From: Candidatus Levyibacteriota bacterium
GTDB lineage: Bacteria; Patescibacteriota; Microgenomatia; Levybacterales; GWA1-39-11
Length of the DNA: 64,000 bases
Reading direction: 5' to 3'
Assembly: GCA_050255815.1 (NCBI GenBank)
Contig: JBLMVJ010000035.1
Coordinates: 10,727-74,726, forward strand
Shown here: one piece after another, positions 1 to 38,295 of the stretch
How the letters are laid out: each line of letters starts with the position of its first letter
How positions within the stretch are numbered: the first letter of the stretch is position 1
The notes under the pieces: generated by a model
Seen by the model: only the letters and a program-made list of their open reading frames with translations
Database searches by the model: none
Told to the model about the DNA's origin: nothing
Program-made: the position numbers and the translations under genes

Positions 1-1041
1 TTACCTGAGGCATCTGATTCTGCCTTTTTGATCAAAAATAAAGGTACGGGACAAAATGTTACACAGATAGACACGCATGGAAATATTACTACTCAGGGCA
101 GCCTGCAGGCTGCTGCTGCAAGTTTTAGCGGCCAGCTTACTGCCGGAGACGCCAGCTTTAGCGGAACGTTGCGGGCATCATCTATCCTGGCTGATGATAT
201 AAACGGACTGGACCAGAAAGTGGCTACCGTTGCCGCAGACCTTATTGCCCGGGTAAAACCGGTTCAGAACATCCCCTCTTCTTCTTTTGGTGAGCCCCTT
301 GCTGATGTAAGCCTGCAGGCAAAGTTTGGGACATTTTCTGAAGGCCTGCTTTCCCTGGGGGCTTCTACCTTTGGCAATATTTCCGTTATGGATATGCTTT
401 CCATAGGATCCGGAAGCACATTCACGCTTTCCCAGGGCGCAATCAATACCTTGGGGACAGACTTGCAGATCCAGCCATTACGCCAAGCCGGAGTCAGCTT
501 TATGGCCGGTGCGGTCATCATAACACCTGATGGACAACTGCAGGTAAATGAGGACGCACTGTTTAACAAAAATCTGGCAGTCAAAGGAACGGTATATACT
601 AACTTGGTTTCTCCATTACCCAATTCTGATTTGTCCGTACAACTGGGTTCGGAGTCTACTTCTTCTGCCGGCTTTGCAGTCAGAGGGGCATCATCTTCTG
701 CAGTCCTCCGGGTGAATAACACCGGAGATGTGGTGGCATCCGGATCAGGTACGTTTGCAAAGATTAATATAAGTATGGTAGGACAGGCACTGGCTGCAAA
801 TGAAAATGAAGCGGTTGCCACCGGGTCTGCCGGAACAGCGGTGCTAAAAGCAAACAAAACCCAGCTCACTATTTTAAACCCTTTGATTACTGACCACTCC
901 CTGATTTATATAACCCCTGCCCAAAACACCTATAACCAGGTGCTGTTTTTAATGCGACAGGACCCTAAGAAATCATTTACGGTTGGGGTATCCCAACCCA
1001 TTTCCCAGGATATAGAGTTCAATTGGCTCATCGTGAACTAA
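1..1041 (+). CDS. C-terminal part of a large secreted/surface repeat protein (5' end outside the window)
   Basis: Frame 1 is open from base 1, with no stop before the listed TTG at 28. The 337+ aa are rich in G/S/T/A/N/Q with repeated ASFSGxL-like segments. No family recognised. Confidence 0.5.
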   Translation, partial: LPEASDSAFLIKNKGTGQNVTQIDTHGNITTQGSLQAAAASFSGQLTAGDASFSGTLRASSILADDINGLDQKVATVAADLIARVKPVQNIPSSSFGEPLADVSLQAKFGTFSEGLLSLGASTFGNISVMDMLSIGSGSTFTLSQGAINTLGTDLQIQPLRQAGVSFMAGAVIITPDGQLQVNEDALFNKNLAVKGTVYTNLVSPLPNSDLSVQLGSESTSSAGFAVRGASSSAVLRVNNTGDVVASGSGTFAKINISMVGQALAANENEAVATGSAGTAVLKANKTQLTILNPLITDHSLIYITPAQNTYNQVLFLMRQDPKKSFTVGVSQPISQDIEFNWLIVN

Positions 1042-10333: not shown

Positions 10334-10553
10334 GAGGACAGCGATTGAAGACTAGACCGCCGCCGAAGGCACTTTCCTTGGGAAGCCCCAAAAAGGCAAG
10401 CCCAAAAAGCAAGGTAGTATCCCGCAAACGCGTAAGCGTGTTCGGAACTTGCTTTCTAATGCAGAAATGCACGGGAAGAAATTCCTGGATCCTTACCGGC
10501 CCTAGTTCATCCGAATTCTGGCTTTGCAAGCCAACAGCTCATGGAGAGATGCC

Positions 10554-11990
10554 ATGAATTGGACTGCGCTACTAGCGTGGGTGATGGACCCAGTCCGCAC
10601 CCTTGACGAACTTCGGCAGGCGCACCTTGCCCTGATCGGCCATCCCAACATGGGGAACCGCGTTCAGGTGCGTGCGCGCGTGAGGAACTACATCAATCTG
10701 ATGATCGCCACCCAAGGTGGAGGAGCTCCTGCTCCTTGGCACCCTGGCATGGGCGCTCCTGTGGTTCCTCCAACGCCAACACCTGGCCCTGCGCCCGTTC
10801 CTGGTCCTGGCCCTGCGCCCGTTCCTGGTCCTGGCCCTGCGCCCATCGTCCCGCTCGTTCCGGTTGTCGGCTATCGCCCACGCATGTGGACGTACCGCCG
10901 AATGATACGGAGAGCGCTAAACGAGGGCAACACCGCCTGGATGGATACCGAACTCACGGCATGGGGAGACCCTCCGGGAGTCGGCACTCCAGCACAGCGT
11001 GCGTACCGGCTCGAGAACTTCTCGAGGTCACGGCACGGGTGGAACCGCATCGGGCATGATATCCCGGAGCTTGTTCCGCCTGGCGCACCGGCACCGGCAC
11101 CCCGCCGACAGGTGGACTACGGTCCCCTTGGGTGGATCGCAGGTGCTCTGCTGATCGCAGCCGGCGCAGCCGTACTGTTCTTCGCCTTGATTCTGCCTCT
11201 CTCCAAGTGGGGATGGGACCAGAGCTTCGGCGACGACACGGCAGTGCAGCAGCCCGGCAACCAGCCTGGTAACCAGCCCGGCGGCAACAACGGCAACGGT
11301 AGCGGCAACGCGAACCAGCCTGGCAACAACGGCAACGGTAGCGGCAACGCGAACCAGCCCGGCAACCAGCCCGGCAATAGCGGCGTCATCAAGAACTTGG
11401 CCGACGGCCAGTTCCCCTGGACACCGCCCACACCGGGTACCGACCTTGGGAACGACAAGCAGTTCACCAGCACCATCATCGAGCAGGCCAAGCAGGGAGA
11501 CTGGATTCACAGGCTCTTCAACCCTGGCTTGTTCAACGCAGCCAATAACTACGGCGGAGCCGATTCTTGGGCTATTAGCCTGAACGTCGGTCCGAACGCT
11601 GGTGGCAGCTGGAAGGGCGAGGGAGTCTCGGGACGCTTCGTCTACCGTGCTGTGCAGAATCAGGTGGGTTGGTGCCTTGGCATCCTCACCTCGAAGACGT
11701 GGAACAACATCGACCTGAAGAGTCAACTCCTCAGCGGTTCAGACCCCAGTTTGCCGATCGGATTCAACGTCCGCATCGAACCAGGGTCTACCGTGATGGT
11801 GAAGACGAACTCAGGCGAGATCAAGTCCGGCGTCACAAGCGACATGGGTGATATCCAAGTCGTTCTGCCAGACAGCGGGCTGACCACCATCTGCACTGCG
11901 TTCAGCACTGCAGCACCTACGGGTGAAAGCCAGCTTTGGGTGGGACCTCGGGACCGCTCCAAGGACATCAACACGATCGACGCGCGGTAA
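10554..11990 (+). CDS. repeat-rich single-pass membrane protein of unknown family (high-GC island)
   Basis: The listed ORF starts at TTG 10524; ATG 10554 is preferred because GGAGAG sits at 10543-10548. Contains a PGPAPVPG repeat, one TM helix (LGWIAGALLIAAGAAVLFFALILPL), a QPGN/NGNGSGNA repeat, and a ~270-aa C-terminal domain. Confidence 0.6.
   Translation: MNWTALLAWVMDPVRTLDELRQAHLALIGHPNMGNRVQVRARVRNYINLMIATQGGGAPAPWHPGMGAPVVPPTPTPGPAPVPGPGPAPVPGPGPAPIVPLVPVVGYRPRMWTYRRMIRRALNEGNTAWMDTELTAWGDPPGVGTPAQRAYRLENFSRSRHGWNRIGHDIPELVPPGAPAPAPRRQVDYGPLGWIAGALLIAAGAAVLFFALILPLSKWGWDQSFGDDTAVQQPGNQPGNQPGGNNGNGSGNANQPGNNGNGSGNANQPGNQPGNSGVIKNLADGQFPWTPPTPGTDLGNDKQFTSTIIEQAKQGDWIHRLFNPGLFNAANNYGGADSWAISLNVGPNAGGSWKGEGVSGRFVYRAVQNQVGWCLGILTSKTWNNIDLKSQLLSGSDPSLPIGFNVRIEPGSTVMVKTNSGEIKSGVTSDMGDIQVVLPDSGLTTICTAFSTAAPTGESQLWVGPRDRSKDINTIDAR
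10776..10847 (+). repeat. about 3 tandem copies of a 24-nt unit (cctggtcctggccctgcgcccgtt) encoding PGPAPVPG
   Basis: Units read directly at 10776-10799 (partial match), 10800-10823 and 10824-10847. Confidence 0.85.
11283..11360 (+). repeat. two tandem copies of a 39-nt unit encoding GNNGNGSGNANQP
   Basis: 11283-11321 and 11322-11360 differ at only 1 of 39 positions. Confidence 0.9.
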
Positions 11991-12410
11991 CGCACGGCGA
12001 TCCCAGACTCCTCGGAGTTGCCGATGGAGAGTACCTTAACGTCACGAGCACCGCCTAACCGCTGTGATGATCGTGGTCCGCCTGGAAAAGGAGGTTGACG
12101 ATAACCCTCTGGGTTGTCAGGATCCTGAGCGCAAGCTTGAGGATCTCCTCCACTACGGCGGACAGACTGGACAGTTTATGTGTTTCACGCTCCTTTGAGT
12201 TTTGCATTCAAAGAAAGTCGTGTCACGGCAAAAACTGGTTCCAGTCAGGGTGAGAGACTCATTTATTGAGAATTGATTGGATTTTTTCCATCAAGTCTCT
12301 TTTGAGACTTTCTCCCACCTACATGCCTTTGCGTCTCCCTCACCATTATGGTGAGGGACTGATGAGTATTCTTTCGGAGAAATCTGAGGGAAACGAAACG
12401 CAAAAAAAAC

Positions 12411-15961: not shown

Positions 15962-17170
15962 ATGAGAATTCTTTTAATCACCCCATATTTCTATCCCCAT
16001 AAAGGGGGAAGCCAGCAGTATGCGCTGGAGCTCTATAAAACCATCATGAAGCAGAATAAAGATATTCAAGTTGATGTCCTCACCTATAACACAGACCAGT
16101 CAAAAAGTGTGGAAGAATATGAAGGGTTTACCATCTACCGTGTGCCTTGTGTCCAACTCCTGAAGGGACAATTTGCTATTCCTCATTATTGGGAGCTGAG
16201 AAAAACACTGAATAAACTATTCAGGGAAAACCGCTATACGTTTGTGAATAGCCATACGCGGTTTTTTGAAAGTTCCTGGTGGGCGCCGTATGTTGCTTCA
16301 CATTTCCATACCAAATCTATCCTGACTGACCATTGCGCAGCACATCCCACCCATAAAACTAAACTGGTTACCGGCGTGTCATACGTAATAGATAAATTCA
16401 TAGCGCCCCTGTTTTTGCAAAAATATGACTATATTACCGTGACTAATAAAGCCACCCAGGATTTCTTAAGCTCACTTATTTCAAAAGAGTCAGAGGTTAT
16501 TTATGGCGGCGTAGATACAAAACTCTTTAAACCCAGGACAAACAGGAGCAAAGAAAGAAAAATTTTAGGGATCAAAAAAAGATTTTCAAAGAATGATGTG
16601 GTGGTAGCATTTGTAGGCCGCATGATCTATTCCAAGGGTCCGCAAATACTTTTGGAAGCAGCCAAAAAAATTACAAAAAAATACCCGCGGGCATACTTTA
16701 TTTTTGGAGGAAACGGTAGCCTGTACCCTGAGCTTTCTGCCTTCCAAAATGACCATATTTTCTTTACCGGAGAGCTCACAAAAGAAGAAATATCTGACCT
16801 GTTAGCCAAGTCCGATGTCCTGGTTCATCCTTCTTTACACCATGAAGGCTTTCCAAATGTTATTTTAGAAGCAGGAGCAGCAGGCTGTGCAGTTATTGCA
16901 ACAAATATGGGCGGAACGTATGAAATTATTACCCCCAGAACCGGGATCATGGTAAAACCAACAGTTTCAGCAGTAAGCTCAAAACTGGAGCTCCTAATAA
17001 AAAATGGCTTGCAAAGACGTAAATTGGGAAACAGCCTGCATAAATGGGTAGCTGATAATTACGACTGGAAAAGGATTGCGAAGGTATACCAAAAATCCAT
17101 GCAGGAAAAGATCCGGGAAAATACGTTACTGTTCCCAACCATGCGGATGCGCTCTATACCACGTCACTAA
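15962..17170 (+). CDS. GT4-type (GT-B) glycosyltransferase
   Basis: C-terminal EGFPNVILEAGAAGCAVIATNMGG (E-x7-E type) motif. 402 aa. Confidence 0.8.
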   Translation: MRILLITPYFYPHKGGSQQYALELYKTIMKQNKDIQVDVLTYNTDQSKSVEEYEGFTIYRVPCVQLLKGQFAIPHYWELRKTLNKLFRENRYTFVNSHTRFFESSWWAPYVASHFHTKSILTDHCAAHPTHKTKLVTGVSYVIDKFIAPLFLQKYDYITVTNKATQDFLSSLISKESEVIYGGVDTKLFKPRTNRSKERKILGIKKRFSKNDVVVAFVGRMIYSKGPQILLEAAKKITKKYPRAYFIFGGNGSLYPELSAFQNDHIFFTGELTKEEISDLLAKSDVLVHPSLHHEGFPNVILEAGAAGCAVIATNMGGTYEIITPRTGIMVKPTVSAVSSKLELLIKNGLQRRKLGNSLHKWVADNYDWKRIAKVYQKSMQEKIRENTLLFPTMRMRSIPRH

Positions 17171-18133
17171 CGAGTCAATACTCTGCTCCAGCGTATGTTC
17201 CGGGCTCCATTTTAAAAGCTCTTTTGCACGCGTTATATCTGCAACCATTTTGGCATATTCACCCTGGCGCGTTTGTGATTTTTCCAAAGGCAACTGAGCA
17301 CCTGTTTTTTGCTCTACAGCTTTTATAATTTCTAGAACCGAGTTTCCGGATTCTGTCCCTATGTTCATAATTTCACTATTGCCACCATTTAAAAGATACT
17401 CAAGAGCGAGAATATGGGCATTGTTTAGGTCTACTACGTTCACATAATCCCGGATAGGTGTCTTGTCCGGTGTGTCTACCTCAGGACAGGTCAGATAGAA
17501 CGGCTCTATCCCTAAAGCACCGCGTACGGCATTCTGCATGAGGTGTACAGAAGGTTTTTTGCTGTCACCTATCATTCCGTCATCTGTTGCCCCGCAGACG
17601 TTAAAATACCGCAAAATAACGTAATTTAGGCCCTTTAATTTTCCGTACCACTCAATCATTTTCTCTGTCATACGTTTTGACTCCCCATACGGATTACTGG
17701 GGTTGGTGGGATGTTTCTCATCTATGGGAACGTACTGGGCTTCCCCATACACGGCGCAGGTGGAGGAAAAAATAATGTTTTTAATGTTACGGGAAAGCAT
17801 GGCTGCCAGAAGGACCTGGGCGGACGTAGTGTTGTTCCCAAAATATTTCTCCGGGCTTTGCATAGATTCATTTACTGAGCAATTGGCTGCATAATGGATA
17901 ACTGCCTCTATGTCCGGATTTGAATCAAGCACGTGTTCTATGTCTTTTTTGATTTCACCTTCATAGATATTCAGGTTATCGCCAAATTTTTCTTGTAATG
18001 CCTGCATTGCACCATGGAATCCCGTGGAAAAGTTATCCAGGGCCACCACCTGGTAGCCTTTTTGGAGGAATAAGTAGGCGGCTACTGACCCTATATACCC
18101 TGCTGCACCGGTAATTAATATTTTCTTTGCCAT
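17126..18133 (-). CDS. galE: UDP-glucose 4-epimerase
   Basis: ILITGAAGYIGS Rossmann motif and a YGESK catalytic motif. 335 aa. Confidence 0.85.
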   Translation of the reverse strand: MAKKILITGAAGYIGSVAAYLFLQKGYQVVALDNFSTGFHGAMQALQEKFGDNLNIYEGEIKKDIEHVLDSNPDIEAVIHYAANCSVNESMQSPEKYFGNNTTSAQVLLAAMLSRNIKNIIFSSTCAVYGEAQYVPIDEKHPTNPSNPYGESKRMTEKMIEWYGKLKGLNYVILRYFNVCGATDDGMIGDSKKPSVHLMQNAVRGALGIEPFYLTCPEVDTPDKTPIRDYVNVVDLNNAHILALEYLLNGGNSEIMNIGTESGNSVLEIIKAVEQKTGAQLPLEKSQTRQGEYAKMVADITRAKELLKWSPEHTLEQSIDSLVTWYRAHPHGWEQ

Positions 18134-18160
18134 TTGGGGTTAATTGTAGCAAATTACCAC

Positions 18161-18374
18161 AAAAAAAGCTTCCGGGTTTAACGGAGAGGGATGTTCTCCG
18201 TAAAGCCATAAAAAAACTCCTGACCCTTACGGAGAATAAGAATCCCTGCCCAAGACTCCTACTCTCCGTAACGATCAGGAGCAATGGGACATGCCCAAGA
18301 CTCCTGCTCCGATTTATCGGAGTGACTTTCTCCCTTTAAACCGGAAGCTTCAAAAAGCCCAGTATATTGGGAAA
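18161..18374 (-). ncRNA. candidate structured leader or small RNA upstream of galE
   Basis: A 15-bp long-range stem (18166-18181 with 18335-18350) encloses several hairpins and is followed on the minus strand by a U7 tract (18161-18167). A possible promoter is TTTACA (18403-18408) and TATATT (18381-18386) on the minus strand. Confidence 0.35.
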
Positions 18375-18447
18375 AACGGAAATATATTTTCGTGAAAATA
18401 GTTGTAAAAACAATCTATTTTCATCAAAATAGCTTCATCAATTTTCC

Positions 18448-18476
18448 TTGACAGGAAAATATATTTTTGCTAATTT
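18448..18476 (+). promoter_or_regulatory. sigma70-like promoter with extended -10
   Basis: TTGACA at 18448-18453, 17-nt spacer, TGc-TAATTT at 18468-18476. Confidence 0.45.
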
Positions 18477-18482
18477 TATCTC

Positions 18483-18598
18483 AAAGTACTAGTCTCACCC
18501 TGCCTAGAGACTATGTACTTATAAATTTTCTAAAAGAGCATTGCTTTTCGTACTTAAGAATTTATACAACTAGTAGCGAAAGCGATGCTCTTTTTTTT
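18483..18598 (+). ncRNA. candidate ~115-nt small RNA (promoter, 5' hairpin, intrinsic terminator)
   Basis: 5' hairpin agtactagtctc...gagactatgtact. A ~15-bp stem (18534-18550 with 18577-18592) is followed by T8 at 18591-18598. No plausible ORF. Confidence 0.35.
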
Positions 18599-19054
18599 GG
18601 TAAAGTACTGCTCTCAGAGCAAGACTACCGGAATATGTAACCCTTTTTTCAAAAGCTCCTTCAATTGCTCTTTTCCCACCTTGTCCACGGTTATCTGATA
18701 TAAATCCGTCTCAAAATTCTGCTTCTTTTTTTCTTTGGTAAACAATTTAAAGAGCTTCATAACAGATAAAGTATACCACTTCTTGTCAACTCTTTCAACC
18801 TATAGATAAACAGTCTACACCCTAGAGTTTTTAGGCATACAAAAAGGATTGTTAAATCAATGAAAAAAAATCACAGAAAAAAATGTGGATAACTTTAGGG
18901 AAAATATTTTACCTCTTGACAGAGAATGTTAACGGGTTAAAAGGTTAAGAAAATTAAAGGGTTTTAAAAAAAACGGAAAGAGTTTGGGGATAAGAAAAAT
19001 TTGAGCAAACATCCAACTCGTTAACACGTGAACACGTTAACCGGTTAATAGTTT

Positions 19055-19885
19055 TTACTCTACCATGCGGCCAAAGAAGATGCGGCCGGCATCAGTGGCT
19101 ATGACGCGGGAAACTACTACCTTTATAGTCTTATCTATGAGGTTTTCACCGTTTTCTACTACTATCATGGTACCATCAGGCAAGTACCCTACCCCCTGGT
19201 TAGGGCCTTTTCCACGTTGCACTATCTTCACAAAAAACTCTTCACCCGGAACCGCCGTAGTCTTTAAGATATTTGCCATTTCAAACAAATCTATAGACGT
19301 GGCACCGGTTATCCGGGCTTTTTTAGAGAGGTTGTAGTCACATGTAATAATCCGTCCACGGGTCTTTCTGGCATAGCCAATAATCCGTTCATCTACCGGC
19401 TTTTTTCCGTCCTCATCATCTACGTTTAGCATCTTTACCCCGCGCATCTTCCGGAAATCCTCCAGGCTCTTTAAAGCGTTCCTGCCACGTTCTTTTTTAA
19501 CGTCATCTTTAGAATCCGCAATGTTCTTTAATTCATCTAAAACACCGGAAAGGATGACGAAATTACCAATAAATACGCCAATTTTTACCAGGTCAAACAC
19601 GCGGCCGTCTATAATAGCGGATGTATCCAGAATAAAACCGGGATCTTCTTTTTCTTTACTTGACCGTTTTCTGGAAGCAGGCCTGGGGACACTCTGGACT
19701 ACCCGCTTTGCTACTTCTTCAGCAATCTGGGCAACTACTTTAGGCGGAAGTAAAATGCCCTGCACTGCCTGGCGCGCTATCCCACGCGCATTTTTATTAG
19801 ACACTATCACTTCTGGGATCTCCTCCGTGCTTTTACGAGGTTTTTTTACTGCTGTTTTTTTTGTGGATGATTTCTTAACTGCCAT
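19055..19885 (-). CDS. PIN/TRAM domain protein (YacL-like)
   Basis: Basic N-terminus, PIN-like ILDTSAIIDGR, and a C-terminal TRAM-like barrel. Sits downstream of radA, as in Firmicutes. Confidence 0.75.
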   Translation of the reverse strand: MAVKKSSTKKTAVKKPRKSTEEIPEVIVSNKNARGIARQAVQGILLPPKVVAQIAEEVAKRVVQSVPRPASRKRSSKEKEDPGFILDTSAIIDGRVFDLVKIGVFIGNFVILSGVLDELKNIADSKDDVKKERGRNALKSLEDFRKMRGVKMLNVDDEDGKKPVDERIIGYARKTRGRIITCDYNLSKKARITGATSIDLFEMANILKTTAVPGEEFFVKIVQRGKGPNQGVGYLPDGTMIVVENGENLIDKTIKVVVSRVIATDAGRIFFGRMVE

Positions 19886-33598: not shown

Positions 33599-33719
33599 GT
33601 CCTGGCCTTGACCTATCTTCCCATGTTGTGTAACAACAAAGTATTGTGAGCGCTGACGTGTTTCACTTCTCTGTTCGGAATGGGAAGAGGTGGGACCACA
33701 TCGCTCTAAAGACCAAGAC
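33599..33719 (-). rRNA. rrf: 5S rRNA
   Basis: The reverse complement reads TCTTGGTC...GGTCCCACCTCTTCCCATTCCGAACAGAGAAGTGAAAC...GGCCAGGA, with helix I pairing between the termini. Confidence 0.85.
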
Positions 33720-34000
33720 TCAAGAGCAAAACCGGTAAGATCCGAATCTACTCGAATAGTTTGGGGTAACTTCTAGGCTACCCCATTCTTCTCGAATATT
33801 TCGAATTAACATTAACAAACACTAGCGCATTCGAATTGATTCGATTTAAATTCGAACCATTCGAGAATGATTTCTTAGAATCCACGCTATTTGGATCGAC
33901 CTATTAGTACAACTTCGCTGAAACAGTTACCTGTCTTACACGTGTTGCCTATCAACCTGATGGTCTCTCAGGGGTCTAAAAGAGATCTTATCTTAGGGTG

Positions 34001-34033
<33 letters not shown>

Positions 34034-34268
34034 CATGGAAATCTAGCTACCCAGCAGTGCACTTGTAAGTACAACTGGCACACCAGGGATTTCCTCACCC
34101 CAGTCCTCTCGTACTAGGGGCGACTCCCTTCAAATCTCAAACGGTTGTCCTGGATAGAGTCCGAACTGTCTTACGACGTTCTTAACCCAGCTCGCGTACC
34201 TTTTTAACTGGCGAACAGCCAGACGCTTGGGAGCTTCTCCACCCCCGCGCTAAGATGAGCCGACATCG

Positions 34269-34698
34269 CTGTCAATCCAATCAGTAATTAAGAAAGACTT
34301 AAAAACTTAAAACTGATGGTGATACTCTTGTTACCAAGAGCCTCTGACTATACCTTCATCCGCCAACTGGCGGAGCTAGTCGTATGATACAGATTATAAA
34401 TTTCTCTTTATGAGATGAATCCATATCTCACCCTCTCACCTATGCTGGTGAGGGGTTCAGTCGATAGGGTCCAAAAGAAATTTAAAATTCAGAAGTTAAA
34501 ATTCAGAATTAAATTCTTAATTCTGAAATCTGAATTCTTAACTCTATTTGAACCTCGGTATTACCCTCTTGTGTTCAGAAAGTAGGGTTTCACCGATTTG
34601 GACTAGTTATTTAAATTATTAGTACCTTGTTTTTTGACTCAAATACTAATAAATACAGGCAAGAGTATTACTACTCAGGCGCCCCGATATTTTCATAT
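34269..34698 (-). mobile_element. group I-type intron (430 nt, no ORF) after the E. coli U2500 equivalent
   Basis: Exon junction is GGCACCU | CGAUGUCGGCUC. The 5' exon ends in U and the intron ends in G. GATGAAGGTATAGTC (reverse complement of 34346-34360) resembles the group I J8/7-P7 core. Confidence 0.7.
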
Positions 34699-34742
34699 AA
34701 GGTGCCAAACCGCATCGTCGCTGTGGACGCTTGGATGCGATC

Positions 34743-34775
<33 letters not shown>

Positions 34776-35230
34776 AAGCTACGTCCCAACCACTAAGGAA
34801 CGCAGGATCACTAACACCTGCTTTCGCACCTGCTCGACTTGTAGGTCTCGCAGTCAAGCTGGCTTGTGCGTTTGCACAATACGCTCCGATTTCCGTCCGG
34901 AGTTAGCCAACCTTTGTACGCCTCCGTTGCACTTTAGGAGGCAACCTCCCCAGTTAAACTGCCCACCAGACACTGTCTTTTAGCCGTATTTTTATGCGGC
35001 ATTAAAGTAATGCTCACTCATCTTAAAGAGAGGTATTTCATTGATGACCGAAGTCTCCCTCCTATACTAAACAGTTAAAATAAGCTTGCAAATGTCAAGC
35101 TACAGTAAAGCTCCCGGGGTCTTTTTGTCCTAGGACAACCAGGCCGCGTCTTCACAGCCATCTCAATTTCGCCGTGTAAATGTTCAAGACAGTTACTCAG
35201 TCGTTCTACCTTTCGTGCGGGTCGGAACTC

Positions 35231-35548
35231 CATTGTTTTAATGTTCCAACATGGAACCTCACAGTCGCCTGTGAGATCGGACTATATCTTTCCCTTACCA
35301 AATTGGTGAGGGATCTAGCGTCTAGTCTCTGAGGGTTTTCCGATAAATCGGAATCTTCCCTGCTGATTGGCTCCACCAAGCAGATTTTTACTCTTACGAG
35401 TACTGTTGGATACTGAGCTGTTCCAGCAAATAGCTAGATTTTACACTCATTTAGGTTAACGATTGTGTTCTTACGTGACTGTTTTGCTTGTTCCTGATGT
35501 GTATCCCGATTAGATCGGGACTCGGGCAAGTTGATTTGACCCAAACCA
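35231..35548 (-). mobile_element. group I-type intron (~318 nt, no ORF) after the E. coli U1951 equivalent
   Basis: Exon junction is UCCUUGUCGGGU | (G)AGUUCCGACC. The 5' exon ends in U and the intron ends in G. AAGATATAGTCC (reverse complement of 35279-35290) and GAGACTAGACG core-like motifs are present. Confidence 0.65.
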
Positions 35549-36885
35549 ACCCGACAAGGAACTTCGCTACCATAGAACAGTTATAGTTACTGCTGCCGTT
35601 CACCGGAGCTTTAGAAAGCGGCTCCACCTTGCGGTTTCACCACCCACTATTGACTTACCGGCACTGGGCAGGTGTCAGCCCCTATACGTTACCTTTCGGT
35701 TTTGCAGGGACCTGTGTTTTAGATAAACAGTCGCTAAGTAATCTTTTGCTTAACCTGGATGTTACTCCAGGCAGGGCATCTCCCATAGGTTACGCCCAGC
35801 TTTTGTTGCCGAGTTCCTTGAACATTTGTCTCACGGTCGCCTTAGTCTACTCGACCAATCCACCTGTGTCGGTTATGCGGTACGGCAAAATATAGCACTC
35901 CTCACGAATCTTTTCCTGAAGACTGAAACTTACGATCCTCACCCTACTTTCTTGCGATTTCAGATTTGCATTCGCCACTTAATTAAACACTTTGACGGAT
36001 TTGCCCATCAAAACTATCTTATGGCTTGGACCCTGTTTACAGGGCGATCCTTTCCACTCTTGTCCATCCTTGAGTAATAACGCACTATACTCTGTAGCAG
36101 AATATTAACTGCTTGTCCATCCGGCTACCCCGCGCTTTATGACGGGCCACCGTTAGGAGCCGACTAACGCTGCGCTGACTTACATTGCGCAGCAAACCTT
36201 GGATTTTCGGCGGACGCCGTTCTCAGGCGTCATTCGCTACTCATGCCGGCATTCTCACTTGTAAACGCTCCACCATACCTTACAGTACAGCTTCGCTGCA
36301 TTTACGACGCTCCCCTACCACTTGCTCCGATAAATCGGAGTCAAATCTCCATCGTCGGTATTAAGCTTAATCCTCGATCATTTCCGGCGCCATTCTCCAA
36401 TGTCGACTAGTGAGCTGTTACGCTTTCTTTAAAGGATGGCTGCTTCTGAGCCAACCTCCTAGCTGTCTATGGAAAATGACTTCCTTATCAACTTAGCTTA
36501 AATTTAGAGACCTTAGATGGGAGTCTGGGCTGTTTCCCTTTAGACCCACGAGCTTAGCCCCGCAAGTCTGACTCTCTATTAAGTTTTTACGGTATTCGGA
36601 GTTTGATTGATCCTGAAAAGTTGCCTCTCCAGAGACCATTCAGTGCTCTACCCCCGTAAAAACATACAAAAGGCTATACCAAAATATATTTCGGGGAGAA
36701 CCAGCTATCTCCAGGTTCGTTTAGTATGTCACCCCTTACCACAAGTCGTCTCAGATCATTGCTGCGATCACGAGTTCGGGCCTTCCTCATCCTTTCGAAC
36801 AAGTTCACCCTGCTCATGGTAAGCTCACCTGGTTTCGGGTCTTTTGCAATGCGCATTTAGGTATCCCAGTTAGAGATCGCTTTCA

Positions 36886-36992
36886 CTATGCCTCCCCCCT
36901 CACCTTTCCAACGAAAATTCCAACCTTTGTTTTAAATCGAGCTTGTTTCGATAATATTTCAAAGTGGTAATCCTCATTAGAATGGTGAGGGG
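36886..36992 (-). other. 107-nt stem-closed expansion/insertion in the 23S domain II helix-25 region
   Basis: Closed by cccctcacc (36886-36894) pairing with ggtgagggg (36984-36992). Absent from the E. coli and B. subtilis sequence as I recall it. Confidence 0.5.
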
Positions 36993-37360
36993 TTAGACTG
37001 CGCAATACAAAAACTCACCGGCTCATTCTTCAATAGGCACGACGTTATACCCTTGCGGGCACTTCGTCTGCTTGTTAGCTAATAGTTTCAGTAACTCTTT
37101 CATTCCCCTCCCGGGGTGCTTTTCACCTTTCCCTCGCGGTACTAGTTCACTATCGGTAGATGTTGATATTTAGCTTTGGAGCGTGGTCGCCCCGGCTTCC
37201 CACAGGGTTTAATCGTACCCCATGGTACTCAGGAACAGGCAAGAAGTGAAAATCATTTCAAATACGGGACTATCACCCTCTTTGGTCTCTTTTTCCAAAA
37301 CGTTCTTCTATGATTTCCATTTGTGACTTCTTTTGCATTTAAGCAAGCCGTCCTACAACC

Positions 37361-37660
37361 CCCCTCACCTTTTTATCACTAACCTTTTTAAAAGTTCTTG
37401 CCAAGCTTTTGCGCGCTTCTTAAGCGCCTGCTCTCTTCTAAAAGCTAATTTATAAGAAGTATATGCTTCATAATAAATAAGCTCCCATGGCAAAAACTTT
37501 TTAGTATATATAGACTTTCCTTTATTATGGTCCGTAAATCGAGTTTTAAGATCTTTTGTTGAACCAATATAAAACTGGTCGAACTTTACACTCTTAAGAA
37601 TATACGTGTAGAACATAAGTCTATTATAGTTATTTAAGTTAGGAACAAAAAGGTGAGGGG
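37361..37660 (-). mobile_element. 300-nt stem-closed intervening sequence in 23S domain I carrying a GIY-YIG ORF
   Basis: Perfect 10-bp closing stem: cccctcacct (37361-37370) with aggtgagggg (37651-37660). It replaces the short hairpin that follows ...CAGCYCAAACC in other bacteria. Confidence 0.6.
37365..37616 (-). CDS. small GIY-YIG (URI-domain, COG2827/YhbQ-like) nuclease encoded inside the 23S insertion
   Basis: MFYTYILKS...FYIGSTKDLKTRFTDHN...E...ALKREQALKK pattern. Same orientation as the rRNA. The stop codon lies within the closing stem. Confidence 0.8.
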   Translation of the reverse strand: MFYTYILKSVKFDQFYIGSTKDLKTRFTDHNKGKSIYTKKFLPWELIYYEAYTSYKLAFRREQALKKRAKAWQELLKRLVIKR

Positions 37661-38003
37661 TTTGAGCTGTTCCGCGTTCGCTCGCCGCTACTGACGGAAT
37701 CTCTGTGATTTCTTTTCCTCGGACTACTTAGATGTTTCAGTTGGTCCGGTATCCCGCCGACTACTAATATATTAATCTTGCGACTAATAACTTCATAGCA
37801 GGCTCCCAGTTAAACTGGGGGGTTTCCCCATTCGGACACCACCGGATCATAATGTCTTCGGCCATTCCCCGGTGATTTTCGCGAGCCAGATGCGTCCTTC
37901 TTCGGTCAACACCTCCTAGGCATCCACTATTAGCATGAATCAAATAGCGTAGATTCTAAAAAACCAATTCATTAAAAACCATGCCTCGGCTTGAAACATG
38001 GAA

Positions 38004-38028
38004 AATCCGCCACCCGGCGGATTTTTTT
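38004..38028. terminator. GC hairpin with flanking A/T runs in the tRNA-Ala to 23S spacer
   Basis: aatccgcc-accc-ggcggatt followed by T7 on the plus strand, and by TTTTCC on the minus strand. Confidence 0.35.
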
Positions 38029-38222
38029 AATCCTCCGTCCCGATTAGATCGGGACTTCGGCCTAGTTGTTTGTTTGTAATTCTTCCAATTATTAATGAGC
38101 AAAACGCTTTTTGCGTTGCCCTCGGATGTAATCCGAGGCCATATCTCTCCTGTACTCGTTTCTCGCCGGGAAGTATATTGCCCTTCCACCAGCGAGGAAC
38201 CAATACAAGAAAACTAAAAAAG

Positions 38223-38295
38223 TGGACCCAAGGAGATTTGAACTCCTGACCTCGTCATTGCAAATGACGCGCTCTACCAGCTAAGCTATGGGCCC
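38223..38295 (-). tRNA. tRNA-Ala (anticodon UGC)
   Basis: The reverse complement GGGCCCATAGCTTAGCTGGTAGAGCGCGTCATTTGCAATGACGAGGTCAGGAGTTCAAATCTCCTTGGGTCCA folds as a cloverleaf with G3:U70. CCA is not encoded. Confidence 0.95.

Follow-up and report, generated by a model that had tools for sequence, protein, structure and literature searches.

A multi-hairpin element in a Levyibacteriota genome

In a 64,000-nt stretch of a Candidatus Levyibacteriota genome (contig JBLMVJ010000035.1, positions 10,727 to 74,726; hereafter the window), a cluster of hairpins closed by a long stem and followed by a U-tract lies directly upstream of galE. Is this element (window positions 18161-18374) a terminator-controlled leader acting on galE, or is it an independent structured small RNA? 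Both readings had been offered from the letters of the DNA (the original prediction). Our analysis indicates that the element is very probably a real structured RNA read on the minus strand, and it is highly likely that it forms an independent unit rather than a galE leader. It probably acts through the top of one hairpin, which is nearly invariant in the family. On balance, we lean towards a separate small-RNA gene from an RNA family not described before, found in uncultivated Levybacteria-type Microgenomates of the candidate phyla radiation (CPR) and accompanied by a second small RNA, here named sRNA2.

The element is predicted to fold as an RNA of the galE strand

On the minus strand, the element folds with -95.0 kcal/mol, compared with -61.5 ± 4.1 kcal/mol for 200 dinucleotide shuffles (z -8.1), none of which folded as well. 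The plus-strand fold (-72.8 kcal/mol, z -7.25) is 22 kcal/mol weaker; this gap arises from G·U pairs and therefore points to an RNA read on the galE strand. The individual parts of the original prediction were recovered throughout. The closing stem (18166-18181 with 18335-18350) was lengthened by a repeat search to 22 nt with 86% complementarity (arms 18166-18187 and 18329-18350). The U7 run, which is A7 on the plus strand, was confirmed 27 nt ahead of the galE ATG, and the cggaga/tctccg hairpins, the CUCCGAUAAAUCGGAG hairpin and every other listed stem were found where they had been placed (Table 1).

The region does not resemble a coding sequence, as stop codons occur in all six frames. An ATG that follows the internal U7 opens no conserved ORF (open reading frame), reading MALRR... 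in the window, MEK and a stop in the homologous locus L012, and MRK and a stop in L029. No family of Rfam 15 matched the element, either at the gathering threshold on the whole window and 10 homologous loci or in permissive searches of 18000-18700, L031:1-450 and L027:3150-3800; the Rfam output was limited to rRNA, a group I intron, 5S, one tRNA and spurious miRNA-like hairpins. ARAGORN reported no tRNA or transfer-messenger RNA (tmRNA) at the element or in the homologous loci. These negatives agree with the failure of the original prediction to find hallmarks of RNase P, tmRNA or signal recognition particle (SRP) RNA. A full-text search of the literature found no description of such an RNA.

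One hairpin carries the conservation

Homologues of the element were found in 14 other metagenomic or metagenome-assembled genome (MAG) loci (numbered with the prefix L), and common to all of them is a single 20-bp hairpin, the core. Its covariation was assessed on a gap-free alignment of 14 loci, with 500 shuffles and with slid partner columns as a control. In this alignment, 95% of the cells are paired, and 12 of the 20 pairs carry compensatory changes on both sides. The covariation score of 0.456 was not reached by any of the 500 shuffles (0.202 ± 0.023), and sliding the partner columns cut pairing to 47-66%. The covariation in relatives that had been proposed as a check was thus present in the core.

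The lower ten pairs of the core covary freely, and the upper ten pairs and the loop are nearly invariant. Six of the ten upper pairs never vary, four positions are always G·U, and the exceptions are two compensatory replacements, of U-A by A-U and of C-G by G-C. Since the invariant G·U pairs would be A/C mismatches on the opposite strand, the selection acts on the minus-strand RNA. Furthermore, an exact 26-nt match to the window covers the hairpin top in L018, L026 and L027, loci at which the PIN-TRAM protein is 47.5-48% and RadA (L018) 51% identical to its counterpart in the window.

Table 1 Features of the element and its surroundings in the window (descending coordinates follow the minus strand; MFE, minimum free energy fold)
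Feature	Position	Strand	Description or basis
Element	18161-18374	minus (galE strand)	putative small-RNA gene of ~214 nt, multi-hairpin
Element promoter	18381..18408	minus	predicted sigma-70; -35 TTTACA 18408..18403, 16-nt spacer, -10 TATATT 18386..18381
5' hairpin	18358..18371	minus	CCCA-AUAUAC-UGGG then CUUUUU; MFE only, weakly supported
Closing stem P1, 5' arm	18336..18351	minus	GAAGCUUCCGGUUUAA; MFE, repeat search, homology
Hairpin P2	18307..18322	minus	CUCCGAUAAAUCGGAG; identical in L029, one loop change in L012
Outer split copy of family hairpin	18286..18306	minus	5' arm and loop CAGGAGUCUUGGGCA (18306..18292); first copy of the 14-18-nt repeat
Stem Y, 5' arm	18272..18281	minus	CUCCUGAUCG; MFE; encloses inner hairpin
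Core hairpin	18227..18271	minus	20 bp; R1 match, covariation; common to all homologues
Near-invariant core top	18261..18237	minus	UAGGAGUCUU-GGGCA-GGGAUUCUUA, 25 nt
Top motif	18253..18244	minus	UUGGGCAGGG; within core top
Apical loop	18251..18247	minus	GGGCA; within core
Stem Y, 3' arm	18217..18226	minus	GGGUCAGGAG; MFE
Internal U7 (T1)	18210..18216	minus	directly after stem Y, terminator-like
Degenerate outer 3' arm	18202..18207	minus	GGCUUU; MFE, pairs with GGAGUC of outer 5' arm
3' hairpin	18181..18201	minus	ACGGAGA-ACAUCCC-UCUCCGU; MFE, window-specific
Closing stem P1, 3' arm	18166..18181	minus	UUAAACCCGGAAGCUU; MFE, repeat search
Terminal U7 (T2)	18161..18167	minus	putative RNA 3' end; sequence
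galE extended -10	18143..18151	minus	TGCTACAAT (TGcTACAAT), 9 nt upstream of ATG, 3' of terminal U7
galE	17126..18133	minus	ATG at 18133
sRNA2 promoter	18448-18476	plus	TTGACA 18448-18453, 17-nt spacer, TGcTAATTT 18468-18476; near-consensus
sRNA2	18483..18598	plus	~115 nt, predicted; unannotated, divergent from element, no Rfam match
sRNA2 hairpin 1 loop	18499..18504	plus	CCUGCC, invariant
sRNA2 hairpin 2	T8 at 18591..18598	plus	invariant 19-bp terminator stem, then T8
48-aa ORF	18614..18760	minus	MKLFKLF...GLHIPVVLL; annotated hypothetical, converges on sRNA2

The family is single-copy and changes its neighbors

The GalE protein of the window is 100% identical to one that NCBI assigns to Candidatus Levyibacteriota. 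Among closer relatives of galE in Logan and NCBI assemblies, homologous sequence was present in L012 (85%), L013 and L029 (77%), L016 (74%) and L031 (70%). A metagenome scan with the core pattern added L018, L019, L021, L023, L024, L026 and L027, and relatives of the PIN-TRAM gene added L033/L034 and L035; five further pattern matches in the metagenomes lay in high-GC coding DNA and were rejected as chance. A covariance model of the core (R1), which scores the window core at 71.6 bits (E 1e-20), found exactly one copy in the 64-kb window, one per homologous locus and none in L001-L011. In the window and these loci, the element is therefore a single-copy gene and not a dispersed repeat. No match was found in the phage, plasmid and viral collections searched.

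The 11 galE loci taken from GTDB (at most 66% amino acid identity; 68% over the partial match of L011) hold no copy of the element, and in ten of them, the more distant Microgenomates in which galE is complete, the gene is preceded by no intergenic gap. In all, twelve other galE loci lack the element. Conservation upstream of galE, another proposed check, was therefore seen in close relatives but not in the ten distant complete loci, and in relatives the element also stands elsewhere. The independent structured small RNA of the original prediction is supported by the covarying core, the sigma-70-like promoter, the U-tract terminator, the single copy per locus and the lack of RNase P, tmRNA and SRP hallmarks.

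The window copy appears to have grown by nesting

The predicted promoter of the element scores 10 of 12 and would start transcription at about 18374. The same layout is found at the homologous place in L012 (TTTACA-16-TAAAAT) and L023 (TTAACA-16-AATATT), and a promoter scoring 8-10 of 12 was found in 11 of 13 loci, which in so AT-rich a region is moderate evidence. At the other end, a run of U5-U8 follows the outermost stem in L012, L016, L024, L029, L031 and L033. The terminator scanner did not flag T2, the loop enclosed being larger than its 8-nt limit.

Between these ends, the parts of the window copy have counterparts in other loci as follows. First, P1 has homologues in L012, as the outermost stem (GAAGCUUCUG.../...CCGGAAGCUU, where a C-G pair is changed to U·G), and in L024, as the base of the one long hairpin of that locus (AGCUUCCGGG.../...UUCGGAAGUU). 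The P2 stem is free of variation and hence has no covariation support. Second, the family hairpin is present twice: in the window, L012, L029, L023 and L035, an outer copy is split after its loop by an insert that holds an intact inner copy. In the window, L012 and L035, the insert follows GGGCA directly; L029 has a degenerate outer loop, and that of L023 reads GGGGCAGG. The outer copy of the window runs into a mini-hairpin (GGG-CAUGU-CCC, 18296..18286) and has a degenerate 3' arm, and complete outer 3' arms are found in L012 (AGGGAUUCUUUA), L029 (GGGUUUCUUGC) and L035 (GGCAUUAUUACC). Third, stem Y has equivalents in L012 (CUUCUAUG/CAUAGAAG) and L029 (CUUCUGUG/UACAGAAG), between which an A-U pair is replaced by G-C. 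The outer helix has compensatory changes as well (U-A to C-G in L029, G-C to U-A in L035), which indicates that selection maintains both helices. Stem Y is followed by UUUUUUUAUG in L012, L029 and L013, and the internal U7 of the window is read as a U-tract carried along with the duplicated inner copy. At last, the periphery is variable. Unrelated hairpins occupy the relative place of the window's 5' hairpin in L012, L016 and L029, and the 3' hairpin competes with an alternative pairing of AGGGAGA (on the 5' side) with UCUCCGU. The overall MFE structure of the window agrees with the architecture based on homology.

Minimal members of the family consist of a hairpin and a U-tract, 45-75 nt in all (L016, L018, L019, L021, L024 and L031), and the hairpins of L016, L018, L021 and L024 are uninterrupted. 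The minimal unit would comprise a promoter, a short AU-rich 5' tail, the long G·U-rich hairpin that is the functional unit of the family and a U-tract. L024, with its one 32-bp hairpin, likely resembles the ancestral state for the window's clade. The closing stem (18351..18336 with 18181..18166) would derive from the ancestral long hairpin, inside which a second copy, bringing its own U7, would have become nested, and further stems would have filled the junction; in the window, L012 and L029, this expansion would have added hairpin P2 on the 5' side and split the hairpin just after its loop. Such a nested copy would explain the 14-nt direct repeat and the repeated ACGGAGA/UCUCCGU motifs. The repeat (TGCCCAAGACTCCT at 18247 and 18292) had been noted in the original prediction; it is present and extends to 18 nt with 94% identity, but it is not a free-standing motif, being the 5' arm and loop of the conserved hairpin, apparently doubled by nested duplication.

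The element is accompanied by sRNA2 and a small ORF

In every locus with enough sequence, the element lies beside sRNA2, a predicted RNA transcribed divergently from it. The near-consensus promoter of sRNA2 (family form TGnTAAnTT) has an AT-rich UP-like block upstream, and this promoter and both hairpins are kept in all 10 loci with enough sequence; identity to L023 is 88% over 221 nt. The lower stem of hairpin 1 covaries (GUAC/GUAC, AGCA/UGCU, AGGUA/UACCU, CGGC/GCCG), and the U·G pairs of hairpin 2 fit the plus strand. Four IMG/VR matches to a 17-mer of sRNA2 lie inside coding DNA and were attributed to chance, and a phage, plasmid or viral origin was rejected.

A 48-aa ORF (MKLFKLFTKEKKKQNFETDLYQITVDKVGKEQLKELLKKGLHIPVVLL) converges on sRNA2, and the two would have a bidirectional terminator hairpin in common (18532-18594), a predicted arrangement that is kept in 9 loci. 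Homologues of the ORF were found by tblastn in L016, L019, L021, L023, L024, L027 and L031, and also in L032, L033 and L035; there was no Pfam or NCBIfam match, and a protein search returned the query alone. No segment of the product is of membrane-spanning length, and its AlphaFold2 model is a single helix of low confidence (predicted local distance difference test, pLDDT, 57). With TATACT 9 nt from its ATG, the ORF looks leaderless. In the window, L016, L018, L024, L026, L027, L032 and L033/L034, no more than ~1.2 kb separates the cassette of the element, sRNA2 and the ORF from the 3' end of a PIN-TRAM gene.

Upstream of the small ORF is a perfect DnaA box (TTATCCACA, 18884-18892, minus strand), which is kept in L016, L031, L032 and L033; a DnaA box also stands upstream of galE in L014 and L030. 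A replication origin was considered for this one conserved box and rejected, as there is neither a box cluster nor a GC-skew switch; the box may be a regulatory site. GTTAAC palindromes (CCGGTTAACGTGTTCACGTGTTAACGAG and CCCGTTAACATT) lie at 18900-19055 (minus), just downstream of the PIN-TRAM gene, and similar GTTAAC motifs are found in L030 and L031.

Loop-loop pairing with sRNA2 and a protein partner as possible explanations of the invariant top

What could hold the hairpin top so constant? Our best guess at the function is a loop-loop RNA pair, and its main rival is a protein-binding RNA; most of the remaining weight lies on the hairpin acting in some other way than by kissing or protein binding. 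In the first case, the apical UUGGGCAGG of the element would kiss the exposed, invariant CCUGCCUA loop of sRNA2 over 9-10 bp, and one RNA would titrate or control the other. Naming sRNA2 as the partner is tentative. It is consistent with the complementarity of UUGGGCAGG(G) (18253..18244) to CCUGCCUA(G/A) of sRNA2, neither of which varies among the loci in which the two RNAs occur together. When intermolecular pairing was scored as a contiguous helix (unrestricted RNAduplex yielded meaningless full-length duplexes), this same loop-loop site was the best helix in 9 of 9 genomes. The CCUGCC site of sRNA2 is unpaired in the MFE structures of five of eight homologues and partly paired in the other three. 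The net interaction is estimated at -6 to -8.4 kcal/mol, with a cost of ~3.3 kcal/mol for opening the two top U·G pairs of the element. The core and the sRNA2 loop were no more complementary to the 23S, 5S and tRNA-Ala of the window than shuffles were.

As sRNA2 would be antisense to the 3' end of the small-ORF mRNA, the three RNAs could form a circuit, in which a leaderless 48-aa mRNA faces a convergent antisense sRNA2 and a divergent decoy, growing by self-nesting, captures sRNA2. We consider the circuit as a whole rather unlikely and put it forward as speculation. A second exact copy of the UUGGGCAGGG 10-mer occurs at 913-922 (minus), ~50 nt upstream of a GTG-initiated ORF with a signal-peptide-like start; it could be a further pairing site for the sRNA2 loop, or chance (~0.1 matches expected).

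Several observations speak against pairing with sRNA2 or weaken the picture on which it is built. Both loop sites are invariant, so that there is no covariation between the RNAs, and the excess of the per-genome helix score is modest, being matched by 2-62 of 200 shuffles. An edge position is uncompensated in L031, where G-C becomes C/U; one-sided C-to-U changes in L019, L021 and L027 give G·U. GGGCA persists in the outer copies of the window and L012 and GGCAGG does not, and the outer copy of the window is buried in the mini-hairpin. The promoters and terminators were predicted from their likeness to consensus sequences, in DNA that is AT-rich; the 48-aa protein lacks the hydrophobicity of classical type I toxins; and the 5' hairpin (18371..18358) and 3' hairpin (18201..18181) of the window are without comparative support. 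The whole upper stem is invariant including its fixed G·U pairs, which is beyond the need of a 9-nt kissing site and therefore favors a protein partner.

A protein-binding or decoy RNA is a possible, if still doubtful, explanation. A conserved protein would recognize the hairpin top with its fixed G·U geometry and GGGCA loop; besides the RNA-binding nuclease PIN-TRAM (YacL-like), which is syntenic, RNase III and a ribosomal protein are candidates. This would fit the 26 identical nucleotides of the top at about 50% protein identity, the six upper pairs that never vary and the four that are always G·U, as well as the nearness of the cassette to a PIN-TRAM 3' end in the window and seven further loci. 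The complementarity to sRNA2 would then be incidental or a relic of an old inverted duplication, and the antisense of sRNA2 hairpin 1 does resemble the 5' arm and loop of the element (AGUCUCUAGGCAGGG and AGUCUUGGGCAGGG). However, the partner is a candidate only, the synteny with PIN-TRAM could be inherited gene order, a pyruvate kinase gene stands between PIN-TRAM and the cassette in L035, and a known RNA motif of these proteins is lacking for comparison.

The galE gene appears to have its own promoter

A cis-acting leader, in which the closing stem and U7 terminate transcription ahead of galE unless a signal intervenes, is improbable. The arrangement itself is suggestive: the element is co-oriented with galE at a distance of 27-110 nt in 6 of the 15 loci (window, L012, L013, L016, L024 and L029), it has two hairpin-plus-U7 terminators, and it offers mutually exclusive pairings, for example CAGGAG/CUCCUG versus CUCCUGAUC/GGUCAGGAG. 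Three lines of evidence argue against it. First, TTTGCTACAAT, between the terminal U7 and the ATG, is a predicted extended -10, for which no -35 was found, and it lies downstream of the terminator. The form TTTGYTAnAAT occurs upstream of galE in 9 loci, at 6-9 nt from the ATG in six of them (window, L014, L016, L024, L030 and L031), and three of these six (L014, L030 and L031) have no element pointing into galE, the element being absent or inverted there. The gene thus appears to have its own promoter and a leaderless or nearly leaderless mRNA. Second, the context of the element changes. In L031, the whole cassette is inverted and the element is transcribed away from galE; the element is convergent with the 3' end of a PIN-TRAM gene in L018, L026 and L027, and with a 986-aa gene in L033/L034; the L035 cassette comes after the pyruvate kinase gene; and L019 and L021 also have neighbors other than galE. 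In all, 8 other loci have no galE downstream, and distant galE genes have no element. Third, the minimal members are bare hairpins with no room for an aptamer or antiterminator, only one hairpin is conserved family-wide, and Rfam gave no riboswitch match.

The promoter of galE and the changing context therefore leave the riboswitch or attenuator reading, the first of the two originally offered, unsupported. Read-through may add to galE transcription in the window's clade, but the family is not conserved for it.

Selfish or housekeeping origins

A non-functional or selfish palindrome, such as terminator debris, a repeat of the miniature inverted-repeat transposable element (MITE) or repetitive extragenic palindromic (REP) type, or an inverted repeat that works at the level of DNA as a recombination or binding site and duplicates into itself, is very improbable. 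The nested self-similar architecture and the fast turnover of the peripheral parts would suit it. The Logan contigs L012, L013 and L032 break inside the region; they end exactly inside sRNA2 or the core hairpin, which is likely due to sequence identity between co-occurring strains breaking the assembly graph. There is also an exact 23-nt match (TTTTTTTATGGCTTTACGGAGAA) between 18194-18216 (minus) and the unrelated locus L001 (12434-12456), a distant Microgenomates MAG, where a terminator precedes it and the stop codon of a convergent 172-aa ORF overlaps it. Against such an origin, each locus has one syntenic copy, with none elsewhere in the 64 kb and ~190 kb of related loci and no phage, plasmid or viral match; the helices carry compensatory changes; the loop is invariant across deep divergence; and the conserved G·U pairs reflect selection on one RNA strand, not on duplex DNA. 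A dispersed MITE or REP repeat in particular was rejected on account of the single copy in the 64-kb window and in each homologous locus, always beside sRNA2, the four invariant G·U pairs and the 22 kcal/mol strand gap.

The least probable origin is a divergent 6S, SRP, RNase P or tmRNA missed by Rfam: the length of ~190-214 nt, the closing stem and the long terminal hairpin are loosely 6S-like and CPR RNAs are often atypical, but no model matched the element even at E up to 10 (700-nt search) or its homologues, ARAGORN was negative, and the minimal members are perfect hairpins of 45-75 nt with no central bubble, GNRA/GGAA SRP motif or tRNA-like end. The features by which the last three are recognized, namely the domain IV GNAR loop of SRP RNA, the P4 helix of RNase P RNA and the tRNA-like domain of tmRNA with its tag ORF, were likewise missing from the Rfam and ARAGORN results.

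Comparison with known systems

The par system of the enterococcal plasmid pAD1 (Fst RNA I - RNA II) consists of a short-ORF mRNA and a convergent small RNA that have a common bidirectional terminator and fully complementary 3' hairpins. The cassette likewise has a convergent ORF and sRNA2 with a predicted bidirectional terminator, it is compact with strong promoters, and recognition would be expected to start at a loop. Unlike par, its 48-aa product is Lys-rich and hydrophilic, is not a membrane peptide and matches nothing in Pfam or NCBIfam; the element is added as a third RNA, for which par has no counterpart; and the cassette is chromosomal, syntenic and present once per locus.

Sponges or anti-sRNAs (SroC/GcvB, AgvB/GcvB) and kissing-loop antisense RNAs (CopA/CopT, ColE1 RNA I/RNA II) provide a second comparison. 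The element resembles them in its short G+C-rich loop, complementary to the sRNA2 loop with 9-10 potential pairs and a favorable net energy, and expanded versions in L023, L026 and L027 bear extra GGCAGG motifs. It differs in that the two genes are divergent neighbors and not cis-antisense, and the pairing is predicted, with no inter-RNA covariation. Furthermore, its complementary bases lie partly in the stem top and its upper stem is sequence-invariant, a feature that, to our knowledge, no known sponge needs.

The likeness to riboswitch leaders is that of a multi-stem RNA with hairpin and U-tract terminators, placed in six loci just ahead of a metabolic gene that reads in the same direction; the galE promoter below the terminator, the unconserved link to galE, and the absence of an aptamer-sized structure and of an Rfam match set the element apart. 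With 6S RNA, which is ~180 nt long and largely double-stranded, with a large central bubble between closing and terminal stems, the window copy has in common its length, the long closing stem that pairs the 5' and 3' ends, and the long terminal helix. It lacks the central bubble, members of the family shrink to a single hairpin of 45-75 nt, and there was no 6S or 6S-Flavo match at E up to 10.

Other features of the window

The 23S rRNA gene spans 4067 nt (33600-38295, minus) with a group I intron (35258..35526, 80.5 bits) and several large insertions. The 5S and tRNA-Ala(UGC) genes adjoin it, and no 16S gene lies within the window; the rRNA genes are therefore unlinked. The region 10500-12000 has a G+C content of 0.52, compared with 0.42-0.44 elsewhere, and holds a 488-aa ORF rich in Pro/Gly and Asn/Gly repeats.

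Implications

The element is previously undescribed, yet of a familiar kind, namely a small RNA running from promoter to terminator and possibly one half of an antisense or decoy pair. Unusual are the extreme conservation of one hairpin top, the nested self-duplication and the fixed company of a partner RNA and a small ORF. For galE, a false riboswitch lead is removed, and both galE and the small ORF are probably leaderless. If the pairing with sRNA2 is real, the element would be an RNA sponge for an antisense RNA that evolves by self-insertion. Hairpin-within-hairpin growth with compensatory changes in several lineages would represent an unusual route of RNA-gene evolution. The regulatory RNAs of CPR bacteria (Patescibacteria) appear to be largely undescribed, and this locus yields two unannotated RNAs with comparative support that are more conserved than the neighboring proteins and come with a small conserved ORF and a specific pairing hypothesis.

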